Shown here one piece after another: positions 13,692 to 61,131 of a DNA stretch of 64,000 nt. The DNA lies in the UHGV virus genome UHGV-0134778; one strand, 5' to 3'. Origin of the DNA: a virus. Numbering within the stretch: the first letter of the stretch is position 1; each line of letters starts with the position of its first letter. A model generated the notes under the pieces. It was not told the origin of the DNA and ran no database searches. It worked only from the letters and a program-made list of their open reading frames with translations. A program made the position numbers and the translations under genes.

Positions 13692-13768
13692 TGGTCTCCA
13701 CGGAGTGATTCGAACACTCGACCTCCTGATCCCAAATCAGGCGCTCTACCAAGCTGAGCTACGCGGAG
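13692..13768 (-). tRNA. tRNA-Pro (anticodon TGG)
   Basis: Hand-folded cloverleaf: 7-bp acceptor stem, D arm GCTC/GAGC, anticodon loop TTTGGGA, T loop TTCGAAT, encoded CCA. Confidence 0.85.
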
Positions 13769-13779
13769 TATTTATTATT

Positions 13780-13854
13780 TGGTGGCCCTGGGTGGAATTG
13801 AACCACCGTCTGGCGATTATGAGTCGCTTGCTTGAACCTTCCAGCTACAGGGCC
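13780..13854 (-). tRNA. tRNA-Met (anticodon CAT; elongator type, could be lysidine-modified Ile2)
   Basis: Acceptor GGCCCTG/CAGGGCC, anticodon loop CTCATAA, T loop TTCAATT, encoded CCA; G1-C72 pair argues against initiator. Confidence 0.8.
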
Positions 13855-13855
13855 A

Positions 13856-13931
13856 TGGTGCTGATGGCAGGACTTGAACCTGCAACCTATTGATTACAAA
13901 TCAATTGCACTGCCAATTGTGCTACATCAGC
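13856..13931 (-). tRNA. tRNA-Thr (anticodon TGT)
   Basis: Perfect 7-bp acceptor stem GCTGATG/CATCAGC, anticodon stem-loop ATTGA-TTTGTAA-TCAAT, T loop TTCAAGT, encoded CCA. Confidence 0.85.
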
Positions 13932-13935
13932 AAAA

Positions 13936-14034
13936 GGTGCTAGGTGATGGAATCGAACCACCTATGTATTCAACGACTACCTCGTCTATTTTCAGGATTA
14001 AAAATCCTCGCCCTTGCCAAAGGGCTTACCTAGC
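13936..14034 (-). tRNA. atypical tRNA-like element (99 nt): possible non-canonical tRNA or tRNA pseudogene
   Basis: Perfect 7-bp acceptor stem (GCTAGGT/ACCTAGC), canonical D arm and T arm (GGTGG-TTCGATT-CCATC), but A8-A9 instead of U8, an AGGATT-TTT-AATCCT hairpin in place of a standard anticodon arm, and a ~31-nt insert containing a second hairpin; no CCA encoded. Confidence 0.35.
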
Positions 14035-14132
14035 GCAATATGTTGACCATGTGGCTAGTCGGCGATGACGACTGTAACATTTGATAATCCGGTTCTGCTT
14101 CCGGCTTTCGCTTAATTACAAGGTCAACAATG

Positions 14133-14223
14133 TGGCGGAGAGTAATGGAATCGAACCATCATCGAGTCATCCTCAACGGGACGGTTTTCAAGACCGCTTG
14201 AGCACCATTGCTCCCTACCCTCC
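14133..14223 (-). tRNA. tRNA-Ser (anticodon TGA), class II with long variable arm
   Basis: Acceptor GGAGGGT/ACTCTCC with one G-U pair, anticodon stem-loop GCGGT-CTTGAAA-ACCGT, ~20-nt variable arm, T loop TTCGATT, encoded CCA. Confidence 0.8.
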
Positions 14224-14337
14224 TTTATAAATTACACTGATAATGACACTGATTTTCGAGCAGTTAGTGACTAGTATAAACGACGATAAATATCAATGTC
14301 ATTATCTGTATGATTTATGCATTTAAAAATATAAATT

Positions 14338-14424
14338 TGGTGGGGAGTGGTGGAGTCGAACCACCCGAGTCGCAATGACAATAGATTTACAGTCTACACC
14401 GCTACCTCTACGGGATAACTCCCC
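14338..14424 (-). tRNA. tRNA-Tyr (anticodon GTA), class II
   Basis: Acceptor GGGGAGT/ACTCCCC, anticodon stem-loop GTAGA-CTGTAAA-TCTAT, variable arm, T arm GGTGG-TTCGACT-CCACC, encoded CCA. Confidence 0.8.
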
Positions 14425-14428
14425 AATT

Positions 14429-14503
14429 TGGCACCCCGTACTGGACTCGAACCAGTGTCAACGGCTTAGAAGGCCGCTGCTTTATCCACTAAGCTAACAG
14501 GGC
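14429..14503 (-). tRNA. tRNA-Arg (anticodon TCT)
   Basis: Acceptor GCCCTGT/ACGGGGT with two G-U pairs, D arm GCTT/AAGC, anticodon stem-loop GCGGC-CTTCTAA-GCCGT, T arm ACTGG-TTCGAGT-CCAGT, encoded CCA. Confidence 0.8.
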
Positions 14504-16884: not shown

Positions 16885-16970
16885 GTGTCCGTATCACGGA
16901 CAGTTAGTGTCCGTATTACGGGCAGATGTGTCCGCGTGACGGACAGTAGTGTCCGTATCACGGACAGTTA
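16885..16970. repeat. iteron-like array: four tandem 21-22 bp repeats, each with the palindromic core TGTCCGTATCACGGACA
   Basis: Copies at about 16885, 16907, 16928 and 16949 (GTGTCCGTATCACGGACAGTTA and close variants); immediately preceded by an AT-rich tract at ~16790-16880. Confidence 0.8.
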
Positions 16971-54734: not shown

Positions 54735-55061
54735 ATGCTAATGCCGATTACTGTAAAAGAACTAAATGAACGTGATGCAGGAGGCCTGTGGCCTGCACGG
54801 AAAATACGCTGCGTTTATATGAAAGAGAATCTTGAACACCTTGATCAACAGATTGCGGTTGGCGATATTTTCGAAGTTCTCTATTCTAATCGTCGCAACT
54901 GGGAAACCATTCAACCTTCCGGTTTTGTTCTTGCCAGACTTGATACCGGAGAAGTGATTATCCCTGGGCTGGATATTGTCTTCGAAATTATCCAGGAGTG
55001 GGATCCTGATAAGATTAAATATGAAGAGTTATTCGGTGAAGGTATTATCAGGCCTGTATGA
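54735..55061 (+). CDS. hypothetical protein
   Basis: 108-aa ORF with GAAGGAG RBS. Confidence 0.5.
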   Translation: MLMPITVKELNERDAGGLWPARKIRCVYMKENLEHLDQQIAVGDIFEVLYSNRRNWETIQPSGFVLARLDTGEVIIPGLDIVFEIIQEWDPDKIKYEELFGEGIIRPV

Positions 55062-55369
55062 GGTGGATTATGTCTACAACGACAGCTAAATACTCCTATA
55101 TGCCAGCAACCTCGGCAGAAATAGACTTCAGTTTTGATGTGTTTCCATTGTTTGAGGTGGTTCTGGCATACCCAACAATACTATCTACTCCTGAATCCCT
55201 TGTACCTGTTAAGTTGCAGAACGCTATGCATTCCATGCATTACAACAATAAATGTAGGCACAGATGGTGTCAAGACGAGGAAAAAGATCTGGAGAGTTTG
55301 AAAGATTTTGACAGTCACCTTTTGACACCTTTTAGTTACTCAAACCTAGACAAGCCTTCATGGGTATAG
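55058..55369 (+). CDS. hypothetical protein
   Basis: 103-aa ORF. Confidence 0.45.
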   Translation: MRWIMSTTTAKYSYMPATSAEIDFSFDVFPLFEVVLAYPTILSTPESLVPVKLQNAMHSMHYNNKCRHRWCQDEEKDLESLKDFDSHLLTPFSYSNLDKPSWV

Positions 55370-55394
55370 CAAAATATCAAATTTAAGGCACATA

Positions 55395-55420
55395 GGACGC
55401 TATGTGGCGTCCTTTTCTTT
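55395..55420 (+). terminator. rho-independent terminator
   Basis: GGACGC-tatgtg-GCGTCC followed by TTTTCTTT. Confidence 0.7.
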
Positions 55421-55582
55421 ATCTGGTGCACGATTCCATACCTTAAGCAGTTAATCTCATTACAGAGCGTTTAAAGGCGGCTTACAAGCAACTCTCTATT
55501 TCGAGCGTAGCGAGAACGCACGTCCGTTTTGACCCAAATCACCATACGCTCGGATTTTAACCAAACCCTCGCGGCGTTTCTG

Positions 55583-55611
55583 TTGACACATTACCGCTCC
55601 AGTGATAATAT
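55583..55611 (+). promoter_or_regulatory. sigma70-like promoter
   Basis: TTGACA-N17-TAATAT; lies inside the N-terminal part of ORF-track ORF 55529-55942, arguing that part is not coding. Confidence 0.5.
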
Positions 55612-55643
55612 CCACACATCATTTGGAGAATATGGGATACACA

Positions 55644-55733
55644 ATGAAAACATTGTCAGAGGTTTTGGTGGTGATCCTGATGATCATTACGTCCATAGTG
55701 GCTGTTGCCGGAATACTCACGGGTGGAACATGA
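55644..55733 (+). CDS. small hydrophobic peptide (29 aa), not in the ORF track
   Basis: MKTLSEVLVVILMIITSIVAVAGILTGGT; GGAG RBS downstream of the promoter; stop overlaps the next ATG. Confidence 0.35.
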   Translation: MKTLSEVLVVILMIITSIVAVAGILTGGT

Positions 55734-55942
55734 TAAACACACATGCATCTGAAGAGACATCCAAAGGAGTGACTATATGTCCCTTGGCTGAGCCAGTGAA
55801 AGAGGAAAACTTAGATTCTGAAGATTCTCCATCTTCGCTCCAGGTAGATCCTGAGGCTGATGACCTAACGTGGGAAGACATCGTAGACATCTGGTTCTCC
55901 ATTATGCCTGAGCACGAAGAGTTCAGAGGTGGCAGACTATGA
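55730..55942 (+). CDS. hypothetical acidic protein
   Basis: C-terminal 70 aa of ORF-track ORF 55529-55942, starting at an internal ATG coupled to the upstream peptide; alternative is the full 137-aa ORF. Confidence 0.35.
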   Translation: MINTHASEETSKGVTICPLAEPVKEENLDSEDSPSSLQVDPEADDLTWEDIVDIWFSIMPEHEEFRGGRL

Positions 55943-56063
55943 AGCACCGAGCCCACACAGGTTCCTCATGCTAAAGCATGGCCTGAAGAGGCAAACGTGC
56001 ATAATTCCTGTGCATTGGAACGTATAAAACCCTGTTCACACTCTCATTTCTAGAGGAGATTTC

Positions 56064-56279
56064 ATGAAGATAGAAATATTTGGTGGAGCTGACAACACTT
56101 GTGGCCTGATTTACCTCGAATTCGATGAATCGTACCTGCCAGAAGTGTTAAACATGGATTCTGTTGCTGAGGCTTTGGGAGTAAGTCCTAAAGATCTCTA
56201 CTCTGGTGCTGAGATTGATGGTTGGGAGGAGACCATGAACATCGATTTCAGTGAAGTAGGTGATGAACCGCTGGACTGA
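56064..56279 (+). CDS. hypothetical acidic protein (MKIEIF N-terminus)
   Basis: 71-aa ORF with GGAG RBS; last plus-strand gene before the non-coding region. Confidence 0.45.
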   Translation: MKIEIFGGADNTCGLIYLEFDESYLPEVLNMDSVAEALGVSPKDLYSGAEIDGWEETMNIDFSEVGDEPLD

Positions 56280-57804
56280 CACACAATTAGTTGCCCGGCT
56301 AAAGTGCTGGAAGCACCCATAACATCTTCCAACTAAATTTCCTACCAACACAGTTACTTACCCACCACACATGACTGTTTGCTTGTTTAGTGAGCAGTCA
56401 TCCCTTGACATTCTTGCCTATCTTGATAAAATTAAGTTCTTCTCTTTTCTTTTACCGAGTAATTCGGGTTTTCTGTTCTCTTCGGTTTGAAGGGGTATGG
56501 AGATACACCTGAGTGAACAGGGTGAACAACCGAACCTTTAGCTATGGCATTAGCATGGCGAAGCGGACGGGTGACGAAAGAGGGGCCGGAGGACACCAGT
56601 CACTGCCATATAGTATATGGGTGATAACCTGAAGAGTCTGAATAAGTGTTTAAGTACCAGTCAGAGGAAAAGGTGAATGGTAGCCGAAGGGGGAGGGGGG
56701 TTTCTTATATCTTTAATTTGTATACTTTATATACACTTGTAAACCAATTCAATTAGGATCTGTTTACCACACAAAGTGGATGGAGACAAATATCACCTAT
56801 TAAACTTGAATTATTTATAGAAAATACCACAACACTACTTAAGTCTTTGATTTTACACACAAATCCTACAGATACTCACCCTCCATATTTAACATACTTG
56901 TAACATATCCCATACTCTACCTGTCTGATCAATTTACCCAACTACATCCCCATATTTTTCCTGTCTGTACTACCCCTGCCCCGCCGGGAGTCCCGTCATA
57001 TCTGGCTTCCCAGCAAATATCACACCCACAAATATCATTGCCTGAAGAGGGTTTCATCCCATAATACACACCTTGCCTGAAGAGCGATTCATACACCAAC
57101 TAAATTTTTTAATTGACCCCTCCCCGCCGCCGGAGAGGTTGGCTTTTCCCACACAGGCCTGAAGAGTCAGCCAGAAATATCTGAACAGGCCCAGTTATAC
57201 CACGATTTTGACATGACCGACAGGAGTGCTACCCTGTCAGGAGCCGGTAGCGACTGGAGTGCTGCCAGGCGGACGAAATGGGAATACTTCTCATTCTTAT
57301 AACAATTCTCAAATATCGAGGCAGTGAGGCAAATTAATAGGTGAGGCCGTTCACACAGTGGCACAACATTTGCAACCTATCTTGTGGGGTGAATGAGAAT
57401 ACCTATCATTGTGAGAATAGTTATCATTACGGGCAATTTAACATAATACCCATTATGCGCACCACTGGCGATACATACAGGGATTGATAACATGGGTTAC
57501 TGTTTACGCACATAACAATTATATTTCTTACTATTTGTGCGGGATATAGTTAGCAACCAATAGATTAGATATTGACCTGCGGACTTCTGACCGTCCAGAC
57601 GTCTAAACGCCCACACAACAAGGGTTATACATACATTCCTGAATGTAAACAGGGCCGCAAAAATGCTACCATACCAGTTTGTAAATTTTTCATGCAGCAC
57701 TTGACAAAGAGGAGAAAAACTTGTCTGACACTTTTGCCACTTTTGACACTTTTACCTTTGACACAATATGACACAATAACGGCTGTTACTATTCCATATC
57801 TCAC

Positions 57805-57858
57805 TGTTTACGCATAGACTGTTTACGCCTGAATAGTTTACGCCCAAACTGTTTACAC
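57805..57858. repeat. four direct repeats of TGTTTACGC-like 9-mers with 15-bp period
   Basis: Copies at 57805, 57820, 57835 and 57850 (TGTTTACGC, TGTTTACGC, AGTTTACGC, TGTTTACAC). Confidence 0.8.
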
Positions 57859-57869
57859 AGAGATGATGA

Positions 57870-58163
57870 GCCATGCCATTCGTTTGCATGAAAACAATTA
57901 ACAAGATAACAATTAACAAGTTAATAATCTTTCGCTGGCTATGCCAGGTGACTAGGTCACCCCTTCGGGCGTTTATATGACATAATATAAAAGCAGGGCA
58001 ACTATTAGAAGATCTATAGTTGCCTTGCTTGTTATGTCATGATTAACTAAATACAAGGCAACTATGATCTGAGTAATAGATTGCAGAAAAACTATCACGG
58101 GGGTGATGGTTACTGCTTTTATATTATGTCGCGACTCCGTCGCGCCATGCCATTCGTTTGCAT
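57870..58163. repeat. composite repeat locus: 20-bp direct repeats flanking inverted repeats and a 28-bp palindrome
   Basis: GCCATGCCATTCGTTTGCAT at 57870-57889 and 58144-58163; inverted 18-mer TGACATAATATAAAAGCAG at ~57978-57996 vs ~58113-58130; palindrome GGCAACTAT-N10-ATAGTTGCC at ~57997-58024. Confidence 0.75.
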
Positions 58164-58823
58164 AGTTGCCTTATTGTTACAGGTAAAATAATTACATTAT
58201 TAATTATTTCTTATCTTTCTCTTAGTCATCTAATGATTCCAGTCAGTATAGTAATGTACAGTAAACATTAGACGACTAAAGATTTCTCTGTTTATGATAA
58301 CTCATCGTGATAATTTCGGGCTGTTTACGAAAAATGTTGACACCTGAGCTGATTTATGTTATGCAGTCTACACGAATAATTATTTTATGCAGGTATTGAC
58401 TATTCCGTTATTCTGTGGTTGGAATAAATACTTTGCAGGCTATAGAATGGCGTGCGTACGTGAATTCTGAGATCTGGCGGCTATAGTTATACTCGATTTT
58501 TCGCGTAGAACACGCTTTAGATGCTGTGTAAGTGTATGACTTATAAAGATTTTTAGTTGTTGACAAGATATTGGAGATGTGCATCAGGTTAAAATTTGTG
58601 CAATAGCGGCATTACGTGCACTTTTGGGAGAGAAAACGGGTAAAAATGGACTTGCTACCACACAATGAAAAATTATGCAATAGTTATTTTCCATGTATAT
58701 TTGTACAGTATGTGGGATTGATGGCTAGTCAATTATTCCACTTGCCAGGTAGGGCCGTTTATGGTAGGAGAAGAGCAGACAAAAAGAAAGGGGCCTAAGC
58801 CCCTTGATAATTCAGTTAAAAAA

Positions 58824-59243
58824 TTATAATGATTCGTATATTTCAAAAATCCGATTTGCCAGGTCGTTACGGTAGCTGAATTTTTCCTCACGTTTGATCA
58901 TAAGATCTTTATAGCCGTACTCTTTAAGCACTTCATTAACTTTATGGCGGCATACTTTCATATTATCCTGCGCGTCACCAATAAATCTGTTGCTATGGTG
59001 CATGGCTTTAATTTCTTCTTCCAGGACCAGGGCAACTATGCGGACCGGATCAAGCTGATAGGCGGTAACATCCATGCGGCATTGTAAACGGCTTTTTACG
59101 TCTGCCACCGGATATACTGCAACCTCTTCCCCGTCAACATTGACAATAATTAGTTTACCATCGATTTCGAATCCTTTCGCCGCCGGACCGTGACAAAAAG
59201 CGTTATCAAAGCTATATGCCGGATTATTAGATTTAATGTTCAT
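58824..59243 (-). CDS. hypothetical protein
   Basis: 139-aa ORF with AGAGGT RBS and promoter-like element upstream. Confidence 0.5.
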   Translation of the reverse strand: MNIKSNNPAYSFDNAFCHGPAAKGFEIDGKLIIVNVDGEEVAVYPVADVKSRLQCRMDVTAYQLDPVRIVALVLEEEIKAMHHSNRFIGDAQDNMKVCRHKVNEVLKEYGYKDLMIKREEKFSYRNDLANRIFEIYESL

Positions 59244-59292
59244 GGTGTTTTTACCTCTTAGTTAATTTTCTTACAACTTCCCTTCAAAAAAG

Positions 59293-59322
59293 AATATAGC
59301 AAAACTGCCGATCCCTGTCAAC
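59293..59322 (-). promoter_or_regulatory. sigma70-like promoter with palindrome over the -35 element
   Basis: On minus strand TTGACA-N18-TATATT; -35 embedded in inverted repeat ATCCCTG-gttgac-AGGGAT. Confidence 0.5.
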
Positions 59323-59387
59323 CAGGGATAGCGTAATTTTTATGTGATCAAGGGGCTTTATTGCCCCTGACCATGTAACTTGTTGTA

Positions 59388-59651
59388 TTATTTGTTGCTC
59401 ATCCAGTTTTCCCAAGCTGCCTGATAATCTGCCTCACTACGGCGGATCTCTTCTTGCTCTTCAAGGCGGATCTCTTCTTCCAGGTACCCCAAGATGTCAG
59501 CCTTTTTAGTCTGGCGTAGCATCCAGTCATCTTTTTTGCGAGTGAAGATCTTATAAGCTTTCTCGCAAACCTCTTTTTTGCTACCTTTCTGGACTTCAAG
59601 AACACGATAAGCCATATATTGAACTAATTTGAGCTGATCAAGACGTTTCAT
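59388..59651 (-). CDS. hypothetical protein
   Basis: 87-aa ORF with GAGGTAA RBS. Confidence 0.5.
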   Translation of the reverse strand: MKRLDQLKLVQYMAYRVLEVQKGSKKEVCEKAYKIFTRKKDDWMLRQTKKADILGYLEEEIRLEEQEEIRRSEADYQAAWENWMSNK

Positions 59652-59711
59652 GATGTTTACCTCTTTGTGCGGTTCTGATTAGTGGGCCTTTTGGCCCGTG
59701 TCATTATCTTA

Positions 59712-59984
59712 TTACTTATGGCGGCAGAATTCAAGCGTTTTTAATTGATAATCTTCCTCAGCTTGGAGTACGACCGCCTCGATCATTTCGTTGGCATTGT
59801 TAAAGCCATAACCTTTAGCGAACTCATCCGCGCCACCTTCGTGATCATGTTCTGCGTTCATCGCTTCCACAAAATGGAATTCCAAATTGTTGAGGTAGGG
59901 GCTTGATGTTCCGTCCTCTTTTTCGATGAGATCCCAAATAGCATTAAAACGTGATTCGACTTCTTGATTAATCCAGCTTGACAT
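59712..59984 (-). CDS. hypothetical acidic protein
   Basis: 90-aa ORF. Confidence 0.5.
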   Translation of the reverse strand: MSSWINQEVESRFNAIWDLIEKEDGTSSPYLNNLEFHFVEAMNAEHDHEGGADEFAKGYGFNNANEMIEAVVLQAEEDYQLKTLEFCRHK

Positions 59985-60201
59985 AGTGTTTTCCTCTCTC
60001 CTGGTTGTTGTGTGGGCACTTTTGCCCCTTCAAGATAAATGTTACCTCACCCCATGGCAGATGTCAACGGTTTTTATAGTTCTTATATGACAGGCAGGCC
60101 CGGTGATTGTCTCCCCCTGTTCCCAAGTGCCGCCCGTTTAATAAGAATAGCAAAAGGGGCCGAACAAGTCAACCCCAAAATCAGTACCAAAACACTTTTA
60201 T

Positions 60202-60513
60202 TTATACGGTCCGATCATTGGCCTTTGTCCAGGACCTGGCGATCCGTTTCCCGGTCACCTGGAACGGAGGCTGCATTGTGTGTAATGAGTCCAGAGTAAG
60301 GGAGGACCGTTTACGGCGTATCTTCAGGATCGCTAACGTATTGTCCATCTCACGGCCAGGTCCTGGGCGGTATGGTGTGCCTCCAGCGTTAAGGTTGATG
60401 ATCTCATGTATTGAGATCCGGCGTTGTTTTGCTTCCGCATCTTTGAAGATAGCCAGCGGAGGCGCTATGCGTTGCCGATACCAATCTAAAACGGTTGGCG
60501 TAATAGCGATCAT
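60202..60513 (-). CDS. hypothetical protein
   Basis: 103-aa ORF whose ATG overlaps the stop of the upstream gene; GC-richer than neighbours. Confidence 0.35.
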   Translation of the reverse strand: MIAITPTVLDWYRQRIAPPLAIFKDAEAKQRRISIHEIINLNAGGTPYRPGPGREMDNTLAILKIRRKRSSLTLDSLHTMQPPFQVTGKRIARSWTKANDRTV

Positions 60514-60701
60514 ATTTTACCCCCTATGTAGTCCGGTCGGTTTTTCTCTGTCATACGCTTAAGCAATTCTTGCATGTTGCTTATGGCTTGTAGTGTATCC
60601 TCTTCAAGGGATGAATCAAGATAATCAGGATCATTCTTCACCTTGCAATGATTATGATAACGCAGCACCGCCAGTACTTTTTTAACTTCTTCTGCTGTCA
60701 T
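60510..60701 (-). CDS. hypothetical protein
   Basis: 63-aa ORF. Confidence 0.45.
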   Translation of the reverse strand: MTAEEVKKVLAVLRYHNHCKVKNDPDYLDSSLEEDTLQAISNMQELLKRMTEKNRPDYIGGKI

Positions 60702-60709
60702 TATTCCAC

Positions 60710-60844
60710 CTAAAACAATGAGTTAATATATAACATTAGATCGCTGACCACCAGGACAACACTGATCAGCACATGCCTAACCATAAAGGGAAAGATCGCC
60801 AACATTGCCACCACGATCCCCATGGTAATAATTATCTTTCTCAT
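60710..60844 (-). CDS. small hydrophobic protein (44 aa), not in the ORF track
   Basis: MRKIIITMGIVVAMLAIFPFMVRHVLISVVLVVSDLMLYINSLF; tightly packed between flanking genes. Confidence 0.35.
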   Translation of the reverse strand: MRKIIITMGIVVAMLAIFPFMVRHVLISVVLVVSDLMLYINSLF

Positions 60845-60846
60845 GG

Positions 60847-61131
60847 TTAACGGTTCACGTAAGTTTTCCCGTTTACGGTTATCGGCAGATCCTCCAGGTC
60901 TGGATCTTCTTTAAGGTCGCGAGCAAGTTCACCGCACCGGACGCCCTCGAATCCGTAGTACTCTGTCGTTCCGTCCTTAAAAGTTTTTGCGGCAAGGCAT
61001 AAGCGATAAGTAACACCGATTTGATTGACGGCATGGATATCAGTTAGATCTACCTCTTTTGCCAGCTCTTTGGCCATTACAGGCGCATTAAGTCCAATAA
61101 CCAAGGCAACCACTGCGATCATCTTTTTCAT
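60847..61131 (-). CDS. secreted or periplasmic protein with N-terminal signal peptide
   Basis: MKKMIAVVALVIGLNAPVMA signal-like N-terminus, 94 aa. Confidence 0.5.
   Translation of the reverse strand: MKKMIAVVALVIGLNAPVMAKELAKEVDLTDIHAVNQIGVTYRLCLAAKTFKDGTTEYYGFEGVRCGELARDLKEDPDLEDLPITVNGKTYVNR

Follow-up and report, generated by a model that had tools for sequence, protein, structure and literature searches.

Genomic setting of the segment

We analyzed a 64,000-nt stretch of the virus genome UHGV-0134778 (referred to as the window throughout) and focused on a repeat-bounded segment at positions 57870-58163. The window belongs to a Vequintavirus (rV5-like) coliphage, and approximately 120 GenBank records match the region at 85-99%. 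Comparison of these relatives and of more distant lineages indicated that the segment is the core of an ancient, non-coding, cis-acting module in the left subterminal region of Vequintavirinae chromosomes. It lies within a gene-free gap of ~2.5 kb (56280-58823), which is bordered by two convergent gene blocks (the + strand block ends at 56279 and the - strand block at 58824). The genome paper on rV5 labels this gap simply 'non-coding', and its authors expected bidirectional terminators in the gap and found none there (PMC3606486). None of the 22 open reading frames of at least 30 amino acids (aa) in the gap carried a coding signal, as they showed no third-position bias and most were broken in relatives; the segment is non-coding. 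A scan of positions 55000-61000 on both strands with the Rfam 15 covariance models returned no match at E <= 1. The six small proteins encoded in the flanks, including an 87-aa neighbor, had no match in Pfam. The label 'DNA translocase FtsK' carried by this 87-aa protein was considered as a lead to a DNA-binding function and was dropped for want of a Pfam match. We found the module described nowhere in the searchable literature, and it is apparently undescribed.

The gap also contains a chromosome end. According to three papers, virions of rV5-like phages carry a non-permuted direct terminal repeat (DTR) of 458-459 bp, which in LL12 corresponds to bases 104,966-105,424 (PMC6658697). The LL12 DTR and the annotated repeat_region of Gotham were both placed at 57268-57725 with 95.9% identity, and the bov11CS3 record begins at the equivalent of 57268, the left boundary of the DTR. 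The termini were thus mapped in relatives and carried to this isolate by homology. The boundary sequences in the window are ...GGAGTGCTGCCA/GGCGGACG on the left and ...GAAAAACTTGTC/TGACAC on the right. With the DTR at this position, the segment starts 145 bp inside the left DTR and spans +145 to +438 past the right boundary (virion coordinates ~603-896); the two termini, both to its left, are 145 bp (right boundary) and 602 bp (left boundary) away. The terminase would make one of its two cuts at the right boundary, 57725/57726.

Architecture of the segment

The repeats reported at this locus by an initial annotation, made from the sequence alone, were largely reproduced. The 20-bp direct repeat GCCATGCCATTCGTTTGCAT is exact at both ends of the segment, with 274 bp from start to start, the 18-bp inverted repeat has arms exact over 18 nt with 116 nt between them, and the further palindrome GGTGACTAGGTCACC is present at 57947-57961 with 6-nt arms and a 3-nt spacer. 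The reported 28-bp palindrome centered on AGATCT stood as an inverted repeat; it is interrupted by a 10-nt spacer, and AGATCT lies ~2 nt off center. Its 9-nt arms, GGCAACTAT and ATAGTTGCC, extend to 15-nt arms at 93% (57991-58005 and 58016-58030), and a third inverted copy of ATGACATAA follows at 58032-58041. Four of the five GGCAACTAT copies in the window fall in the module, where 0.2 would be expected. These four copies, the third ATGACATAA, the TGACAY and GTTTAC iterons upstream, and the DTR 145 bp away had not been included in the initial annotation. A filter for repeats of at least 17 nt within 1 kb left no more than six families of direct repeats and three pairs of inverted repeats in the whole window, and the segment supplies one of each. 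The coordinates of all elements are given in Table 1.

Table 1. Elements of the module and of the adjoining chromosome end (positions in the window)
Feature	Position	Strand	Remarks
Direct terminal repeat (DTR)	57268..57725	.	Virion chromosome end, placed by homology
TGACAY iteron array	57726..57780	+	4 copies; begins at first base past DTR right boundary
(A)CTGTTTACRC iterons	57803..57859	+	4 copies, 15-nt period
Direct repeat copy 1, GCCATGCCATTCGTTTGCAT	57870..57889	+	0-1 mismatch in 17/19 genomes; 1/20 columns variable; left partner in FV3 deletion
Variable interior	57887..57975	.	15-nt AT-rich tandem repeat (57887-57916) and 44-nt three-mini-hairpin cassette (57928-57971, including GGTGACTAGGTCACC)
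Long local hairpin/palindrome	57977..58041	.	9 + 5 + 9 bp stems around TAGAAGATCT; - strand dG -27.5, z -7.7
Inverted-repeat left arm, A-rich, GACATAATATAAAAGCAG	57979..57996	+	Exact in 18/18 Vequintavirus; covaries with right arm
Four GGCAACTAT sites	57997, 58016, 58057, 58162 (within 57997..58170)	+, -, +, -	
GGGG-loop hairpin	58083..58116 (core 58090-58111)	+	Abuts T-rich arm; terminator-like; dG -16.6, z -4.1
Inverted-repeat right arm, T-rich, CTGCTTTTATATTATGTC	58113..58130	+	Exact partner of left arm
GC block GTCGC-GACTCC-GTCGC	58128..58143	+	Small hairpin GCGAC/GTCGC
Direct repeat copy 2, GCCATGCCATTCGTTTGCAT	58144..58163	+	0/20 columns variable; copy position kept in FV3

Folding of the 221-nt core yielded z-scores of -8.2 (+ strand RNA), -8.5 (- strand RNA), and -9.2 (DNA), and none of 200 shuffles folded as well. 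The predicted structures of the core are mutually exclusive alternatives, which arise from the interleaved copies of ATGACATAA, AAGCA, and GGCAACTAT.

Conservation within Vequintavirus

Next, we aligned the gap of 19 genomes. The core at 57976-58143 had a nucleotide diversity (pi) of 0.020, which is 3-4 times below that of the neighboring genes; the corresponding values were 0.058 for the DTR, 0.07-0.15 for the flanking genes, and 0.27-0.30 for the adjacent variable blocks. Conservation restarts sharply at the first base of the left arm, and the rare substitutions in the core are confined to loops and spacers. The core is under strong purifying selection, and the module is one of the two best-conserved stretches in ~4 kb. 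Because the core is near-invariant, no covariation could be read within Vequintavirus.

Both 20-mers were present in 17 of the 19 aligned genomes, and the arm pair together with the GGCAACTAT sites in 18. In V18, the left 20-mer and the iterons are deleted, and the arm pair and the GGCAACTAT sites are kept. The variable interior (pi 0.27) is dispensable, its cassette being missing in ECP32, inoa, Gotham, and Alma; the 61-bp natural deletion in ECP32 affects only this variable left part. LL12, TP5, and A135 carry a 33-nt insertion at 58031/58032 (TTAACAYCCTYGAGACGAAGGCTWTGCCTGAGT), which interrupts the local palindrome and leaves the long-range arm pair untouched; the insertion includes GGCTATGCC, as does the mini-hairpin cassette. 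The 44-nt cassette itself was found in 53 records. The module of contig IMGVR_UViG_3300010279_000001 lacks the cassette, of which an inverted copy with 100% identity (reverse complement 556-599) lies at a different intergenic site ~2 kb away; it may be a small regulatory cassette that shuffles between sites.

Conservation of the architecture in other lineages

We located outgroups by using the flanking 87-aa and 139-aa genes as anchors, which recovered six Septuagintavirus-like phages and two uncultivated contigs (L030 and L032). The gaps of these outgroups have almost no sequence in common with the window. Read in one orientation, all four lineages place their elements in a common order. Direct repeat 1 and a variable stretch precede the A-rich arm, which is followed by internal hairpins and a G-run (GGGGGTRT); the T-rich arm, a GC block, and direct repeat 2 complete the series. 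The G-run stands ahead of the right arm in all four lineages, and the GC block follows the pattern GTCGC-N6-8-GTCGC, with GTCGC-TCCCTACG-GTCGC in Septuagintavirus and GTCGC-TCCCTCCG-GTCGC in L030 as orthologues. The stems of the internal hairpins are kept and their loops differ across lineages; the stem of the GGGG-loop hairpin, for example, is kept in other sequence in L030 (AATAACAC-GGGG-GTGTTATT).

The left arm reads GACATAATATAAAAGCAG in Vequintavirus, GACATAATAACGCTGAG in L030, GACACTATAAAACGAG in Septuagintavirus, and GCTAATAATAAGCCA in L032, and the arm pair is perfectly complementary in each lineage (exact in 18/18 Vequintavirus and 6/6 Septuagintavirus-like genomes). Comparison of the two genera showed that 5 of the 16 shared pairs in the arms differed at both positions and that one-sided changes were absent; slid controls all gave 0. 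Not a single G-U pair occurred in ~66 arm base pairs over the four lineages, the pairing being Watson-Crick only. The direct repeats likewise differ between lineages (GCCATGCCATTCGTTTGCAT in Vequintavirus, GCGCCATGTTATCGTTGCATA in L030, CC[G/T]CCATACTCTGGCAAT in Septuagintavirus, and GTGCTAATGAT in L032), with the two copies changing in concert. Pairing does not explain this concerted change, which suggests recognition by a co-evolving factor, or gene conversion.

Fold z-scores ranged from -8 to -13 in every lineage and were equal on both strands, thereby giving no sign of a strand-specific RNA. A preference for one RNA strand was considered, as the + strand was more stable in 10 of 12 sequences, but it vanished in the composition-controlled z-scores. 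An exact-pattern scan of viral contigs returned two loci only. Together, these sequence comparisons indicate that the module is old and vertically inherited, and that its architecture was kept while almost every base was replaced.

A natural deletion in FV3

FV3 is the sole genome lacking the interior among ~119 records. Its empty site is base-precise (...GTTTACGCAGATATGATAA/GCCATGACATTCGTTTGCAT/AGTTGCCTTATTGTTAC), a single 20-mer joining the left and right flanks. A query made from the FV3 junction was contiguous in FV3 alone and split in two elsewhere, including in the closest relatives of FV3 by flank sequence, and a tree built from the conserved flanks nested FV3 within genomes with a filled site. 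The one remaining copy carries C8>A, as does the left copy of ECP32-type phages, which would be expected for a recombinant. Furthermore, as the three outgroup lineages are filled, the filled state is ancestral. The unique junction, the nested position, the C8>A variant, and the filled outgroups thus indicate that the FV3 state is a deletion between the two 20-mers rather than an uninserted ancestor, and that the two 20-mers served as a recombination substrate in this phage. FV3 retains one 20-mer and the boundary iterons.

These data bear on the suggestion of the initial annotation that the locus is a small mobile element footprint, for which it had proposed a search for an empty site. An empty site was indeed found; its polarity is that of a deletion, not of an insertion. 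A non-autonomous mobile element that had generated a 20-bp target-site duplication would account for the exact single 20-mer of FV3 with both flanks joined, and it would suit a geneless segment with internal inverted repeats. However, only 1 of ~119 genomes is empty and it is nested among filled ones, three outgroup lineages share the layout in diverged sequence, and the FV3 copy carries the C8>A of a recombinant. The interior occurred at one place per record in 120 phage records, always at the same locus, and had no match in 5,426 E. coli genomes; the sole plasmid match was a 137.5-kb Vequintavirus genome. Moreover, the inverted repeat is internal, its arms being set back from the left and right 20-mers by 89 and 13 nt, respectively, and the ends of the segment (GAAAACAATT... 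and ...CTCCGTCGC) are no inverted copies of one another. The resemblance to miniature inverted-repeat transposable elements and insertion sequences is limited to a short non-coding segment with identical direct repeats at its borders and one precise empty site. The module differs from them in having no terminal inverted repeats and no other copies, a repeat as long as 20 bp, the polarity of a deletion, and a layout ancestral to at least four lineages. On this sequence evidence, the mobile-element explanation appears effectively refuted.

Iterons and the terminase cut

The stretch between the DTR and the segment contains two iteron arrays. TGACAY copies recur with a period of 9-10 nt, and their copy number and spacers are hypervariable among relatives; they form the densest cluster of this motif in the window (6 per 500 nt versus 0.69 expected). 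In 16 of 17 genomes, the sequence past the DTR opens with TGACAYAAT(R)TGAC. The inverted-repeat arms and the iterons abutting the cut have TGACATAAT in common, and this word opens both arms. The number of GTTTAC iterons ranges from 0 to 8 among relatives, with none in V18. Of the eight copies of CTGTTTAC in the window, seven fall in the gap at 56280-58823 (0.3 expected), two of these inside the DTR, and this word may be the binding motif of some factor.

Terminal redundancy was also detectable in an outgroup. The UPEC06 record (MW250786.1) has an exact 462-bp terminal redundancy (bases 1-462 and 142679-143140), whose boundaries ...TGCTGCCA/GGC... and ...TTTTGTC/TAGC are orthologous to ...TGCTGCCA/GGCGG and ...CTTGTC/TGAC in the window. 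The Certrevirus and Septuagintavirus papers contained no terminus data, and UPEC06 would be the first evidence that we located for a terminal repeat in a Septuagintavirus-like phage. By these boundaries, direct repeat 1 of Septuagintavirus is inside the terminal repeat, 51-68 nt before the cut, and the arms and direct repeat 2 are at 237-366 nt past the cut. We had predicted a Septuagintavirus DTR boundary abutting the left arm, since TTGACAAAGA... precedes both; this was rejected, as the UPEC06 boundary is ~237 nt upstream. A degenerate third 20-mer inside the DTR of the window, at the Septuagintavirus position, was likewise rejected, the only candidate being CCATACCA---GTTTG, which was not significant.

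Two properties of packaging signals were found at the locus, in that the module adjoins a homology-mapped chromosome end and repeated motifs flank the cut. The proposal in the initial annotation of a recombination or packaging site was thereby borne out in part, by the recombination in FV3 and by the word shared between arms and iterons; the termini lie outside the segment, and its interior is non-essential.

Several further observations concern the DTR. Both of its flanks are hypervariable and rich in insertions and deletions (57200-57267, pi 0.20; 57726-57869, pi 0.30), and the DNA beside both terminase cuts appears to turn over fast. Phage I29 (ON286975.1) has an extra ~590 bp at the left boundary, at the equivalent of 57230-57267, which consists of the first ~220 nt of the DTR again plus upstream DNA and represents either a real partial duplication or an assembly artifact. 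Within the DTR, a 28-nt island at 57436-57463 (ATTTAACATAATAC...) is the sole internal block that blastn detects in Septuagintavirus (A5-4 and UPEC06).

Possible functions of the module

The explanation that we consider most likely, at somewhat less than an even chance, is that the module is an accessory cis-acting part of the genome-end machinery, in which the direct repeats would be factor-bound, the hairpin extrudable, and the terminators face-to-face. A phage-encoded DNA-binding factor, for which the small terminase or a partner of it would be the natural candidate, would recognize both direct repeats, the TGACAY iterons abutting the cut, and the arm sequences related to them. A hairpin, a cruciform, or a sharp bend would come from the nested inverted repeat. 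When transcribed, the repeat would form face-to-face intrinsic terminators, and transcription would halt at the edge of the DTR during concatemer cutting and packaging; the pause/terminator at the concatemer junction of T7 is a precedent for a termination signal at such a place. Protein binding, hairpins in vivo, and an effect on packaging or termination are all putative steps of this model. In its favor stand the position beside homology-mapped termini, the non-coding status, the purifying selection, the architecture and compensatory arm changes seen across four lineages, the concerted direct repeats, the word common to arms and iterons, and the terminator-like geometry on both strands.

A number of observations weigh against a role in the genome-end machinery. 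FV3 is an isolated, viable phage without the interior and one repeat copy, and the interior is therefore not essential for packaging or replication; any role of the module would have to be quantitative or conditional. Direct repeat 1 is outside the DTR in Vequintavirus and inside it in Septuagintavirus, and within Vequintavirus the DTR cut and the inverted repeat are separated by anything from 98 to 330 bp. Helical phasing of the two 20-mers was rejected, as their spacing varies from 213 to 323 bp. The compensatory signal comes from few phylogenetic splits, and the pattern would be the same for two inverted copies of a single protein site. The geometry of hairpin and U-tract is good in Vequintavirus and weak in Septuagintavirus and L030, and no DNA-binding protein for the module was identified among the six flanking small proteins with Pfam.

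The simplest competing explanation is a plain bidirectional terminator or insulator between the convergent blocks, with the direct repeats being incidental. RNA made in either direction would meet an A-rich arm, hairpins, and a U-rich arm, and the terminator-like tail UUUUAUAUUAU follows the palindrome (57977-58041) on the - strand and the GGGG-loop hairpin on the + strand, the tails being the two arms themselves. The former hairpin was independently annotated as 'terminator' in Murica and Alma, and the site lies where the rV5 authors expected terminators (PMC3606486). The polarity of an A-rich left and a T-rich right arm is kept in 4/4 lineages, and the Watson-Crick-only arms and strand-symmetric z-scores look as if both strands were selected. 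The loss in FV3 would fit a back-up role, because a strong terminator already follows the last gene at 58788-58805. However, the proven bidirectional terminator of rV5 genes 26/27, with which the module shares an A-rich 5' flank, hairpin(s), and a U-rich 3' flank on both strands between convergent genes, is a plain element of ~40 nt (A-tract, GGGGCC hairpin, T-tract). The module exceeds 150 nt, approximately four times that length, and is nested, capable of alternative pairings, sequence-invariant, and bracketed by 20-nt repeats. Termination requires neither near-invariant loops and spacers (pi 0.02) nor concerted direct repeats, and in Septuagintavirus and L030 an 8-15-nt spacer or an AU-rich stem separates the U-rich arm from the nearest strong hairpin. 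Nor is there a convincing + strand promoter: matches to sigma-70 promoters that could feed the module reached only 8-9 of 12 positions, not above shuffles, and a candidate after copy 1 (TTGCAT-17/18-AATAAT) was weak and is not claimed. No transcriptome paper on Vequintavirus was found in the literature. Termination can be part of the function, but it leaves the complexity, the invariance, and the direct repeats unexplained, and we regard it as unlikely to be the whole of it.

Two further explanations draw on the iterons and on the predicted structure, respectively. In a replication origin or priming site, the iterons would bind an initiator, the hairpins would extrude or prime, and the AT-rich right side would melt. 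The two iteron arrays adjoining the structure, the low GC content of the next 1 kb (0.364 in the bin 58001-59000, the most AT-rich of the region), and the non-coding, conserved nature of the element agree with this, and redundant origins, which are frequent in phages, would account for FV3. By contrast, DnaA boxes and sites for IHF did not exceed chance: TTWTNCACA occurs once in the whole gap and not in the segment, TTATNCACA is absent from the gap, and neither IHF nor Dam sites are enriched in the gap, GATC being instead depleted. Phages whose replication genes are nearly identical differ widely in their hypervariable iteron blocks, the GTTTAC copies ranging down to none in V18, and the six flanking small proteins include no initiator-like neighbor by Pfam. 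The switch in GC skew merely tracks gene orientation (PMC3606486). The initial annotation had also suggested a cruciform-forming origin element, of which the potential to form a hairpin or cruciform was upheld by the compensatory changes across lineages, whereas the origin itself gained no specific support, with DnaA boxes missing and iterons that are dispensable in V18; we consider an origin rather improbable. A non-coding RNA with a structure closed by the long-range arm stem, or a pair of sense and antisense RNAs of this kind, would be in line with the very strong predicted structure, the compensatory changes in the closing stem and internal hairpins, the high sequence conservation, and the terminator-like 3' ends on both strands, and accessory RNAs may be dispensable, as the module is in FV3. 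The lack of an Rfam match, of a conserved promoter, and of a strand preference after composition control argues against it, as does the lack of G-U in the arm pairs, which would be unusual under RNA-only selection; the concerted change of the direct repeats would also remain unexplained. We therefore regard an RNA function as quite improbable.

Comparison with known systems

By analogy, the closest precedent for a module of the genome-end machinery would be the concatemer junction (CJ) of T7. There, polymerase pausing at CJ and a hairpin at the junction inverted repeat have reportedly been tied to concatemer processing. The chromosomes are alike in having a short direct terminal repeat (160 bp in T7 and 458 bp here) with short repeat arrays just inside. 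The T7 signal is a class II pause/terminator (bioRxiv 10.1101/2021.01.11.426313; 10.64898/2026.02.12.705533). It is a 7-nt sequence-specific signal without secondary structure that acts on the phage's own RNA polymerase, whereas here the host polymerase would serve and the candidates are of the hairpin type. In addition, the two show no sequence similarity, FV3 dispenses with the module, and the latter is located at the left-end side of the repeat.

In appearance, the module recalls the region of the T5 injection stop signal (iss). That region differs in being inside a ~10-kb terminal repeat with 8 ordered DnaA boxes, whereas the module is outside a 458-bp DTR and DnaA boxes are absent; two-step injection is, moreover, not known for rV5-like phages. 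The R1-R3 sites of lambda cosB, pacL/pacR of SPP1, and the pac hexamers of P1 are repeated sites for the terminase small subunit beside the cut; these sites are essential, and their binding has been demonstrated. Like them, the locus has short motifs, direct and inverted, that are repeated over 100-400 bp to one side of the cut, and here the family starts at the first base past the cut. In contrast to these systems, binding is putative, the distal part can be deleted (FV3), and the spacing is variable, and this phage has direct terminal repeats rather than cohesive or headful ends.

Additional observations on the window and matching records

A stretch of ~330 nt at 56375-56700 showed nearly 100% identity among 19 genomes (pi 0.014), a conservation above that of every nearby gene, and opens with a near-consensus sigma-70 promoter (56405-56432, TTGACA-16-TAAAAT, with TG before). 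Its identity as a structured RNA was rejected, with a fold z-score of only -1.2. The stretch also had no Rfam match and no coding signal. Elsewhere in the window, seven tRNA genes are clustered at 13692-14503 on the - strand, in which ARAGORN calls a 99-nt 'tRNA-???' with a four-base anticodon (atcc) at 13936-14034, and four tandem units of 21-22 nt, each internally palindromic (GTGTCCGTATCACGGACAGTTA), are located at 16885-16970. Among the database records, 18 labeled 'Campylobacter phage' in GenBank match 57400-58700 as Vequintavirus genomes do, with A135, the record inspected, marked UNVERIFIED, and the PLSDB 'plasmid' CP057073.1 (137.5 kb) matches likewise.

Implications for rV5-like phages

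More broadly, the module might exemplify a hitherto unrecognized class of signals at the genome ends of large myoviruses that have short terminal repeats. In such a signal, a factor-bound hairpin or cruciform would couple arrest of the host RNA polymerase to terminase cutting or DTR duplication; we put this forward as a speculative proposal that is unlikely as it stands. If true, the module would be the hairpin-based, host-polymerase counterpart of the T7 concatemer-junction signal, and a loss such as that in FV3 would reduce the fidelity of packaging or the fitness of the phage but would not be lethal.

The rV5-like phages are among the coliphages most often isolated and most often proposed for therapy. 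Knowledge of the module may help to orient and close Vequintavirinae genomes correctly in assembly and, in phage engineering, to decide where cargo can or cannot be inserted near the end. A conserved module beside the cut, together with a natural deletion variant, offers a small target for the study of packaging signals, end protection, and transcription insulation in these phages.

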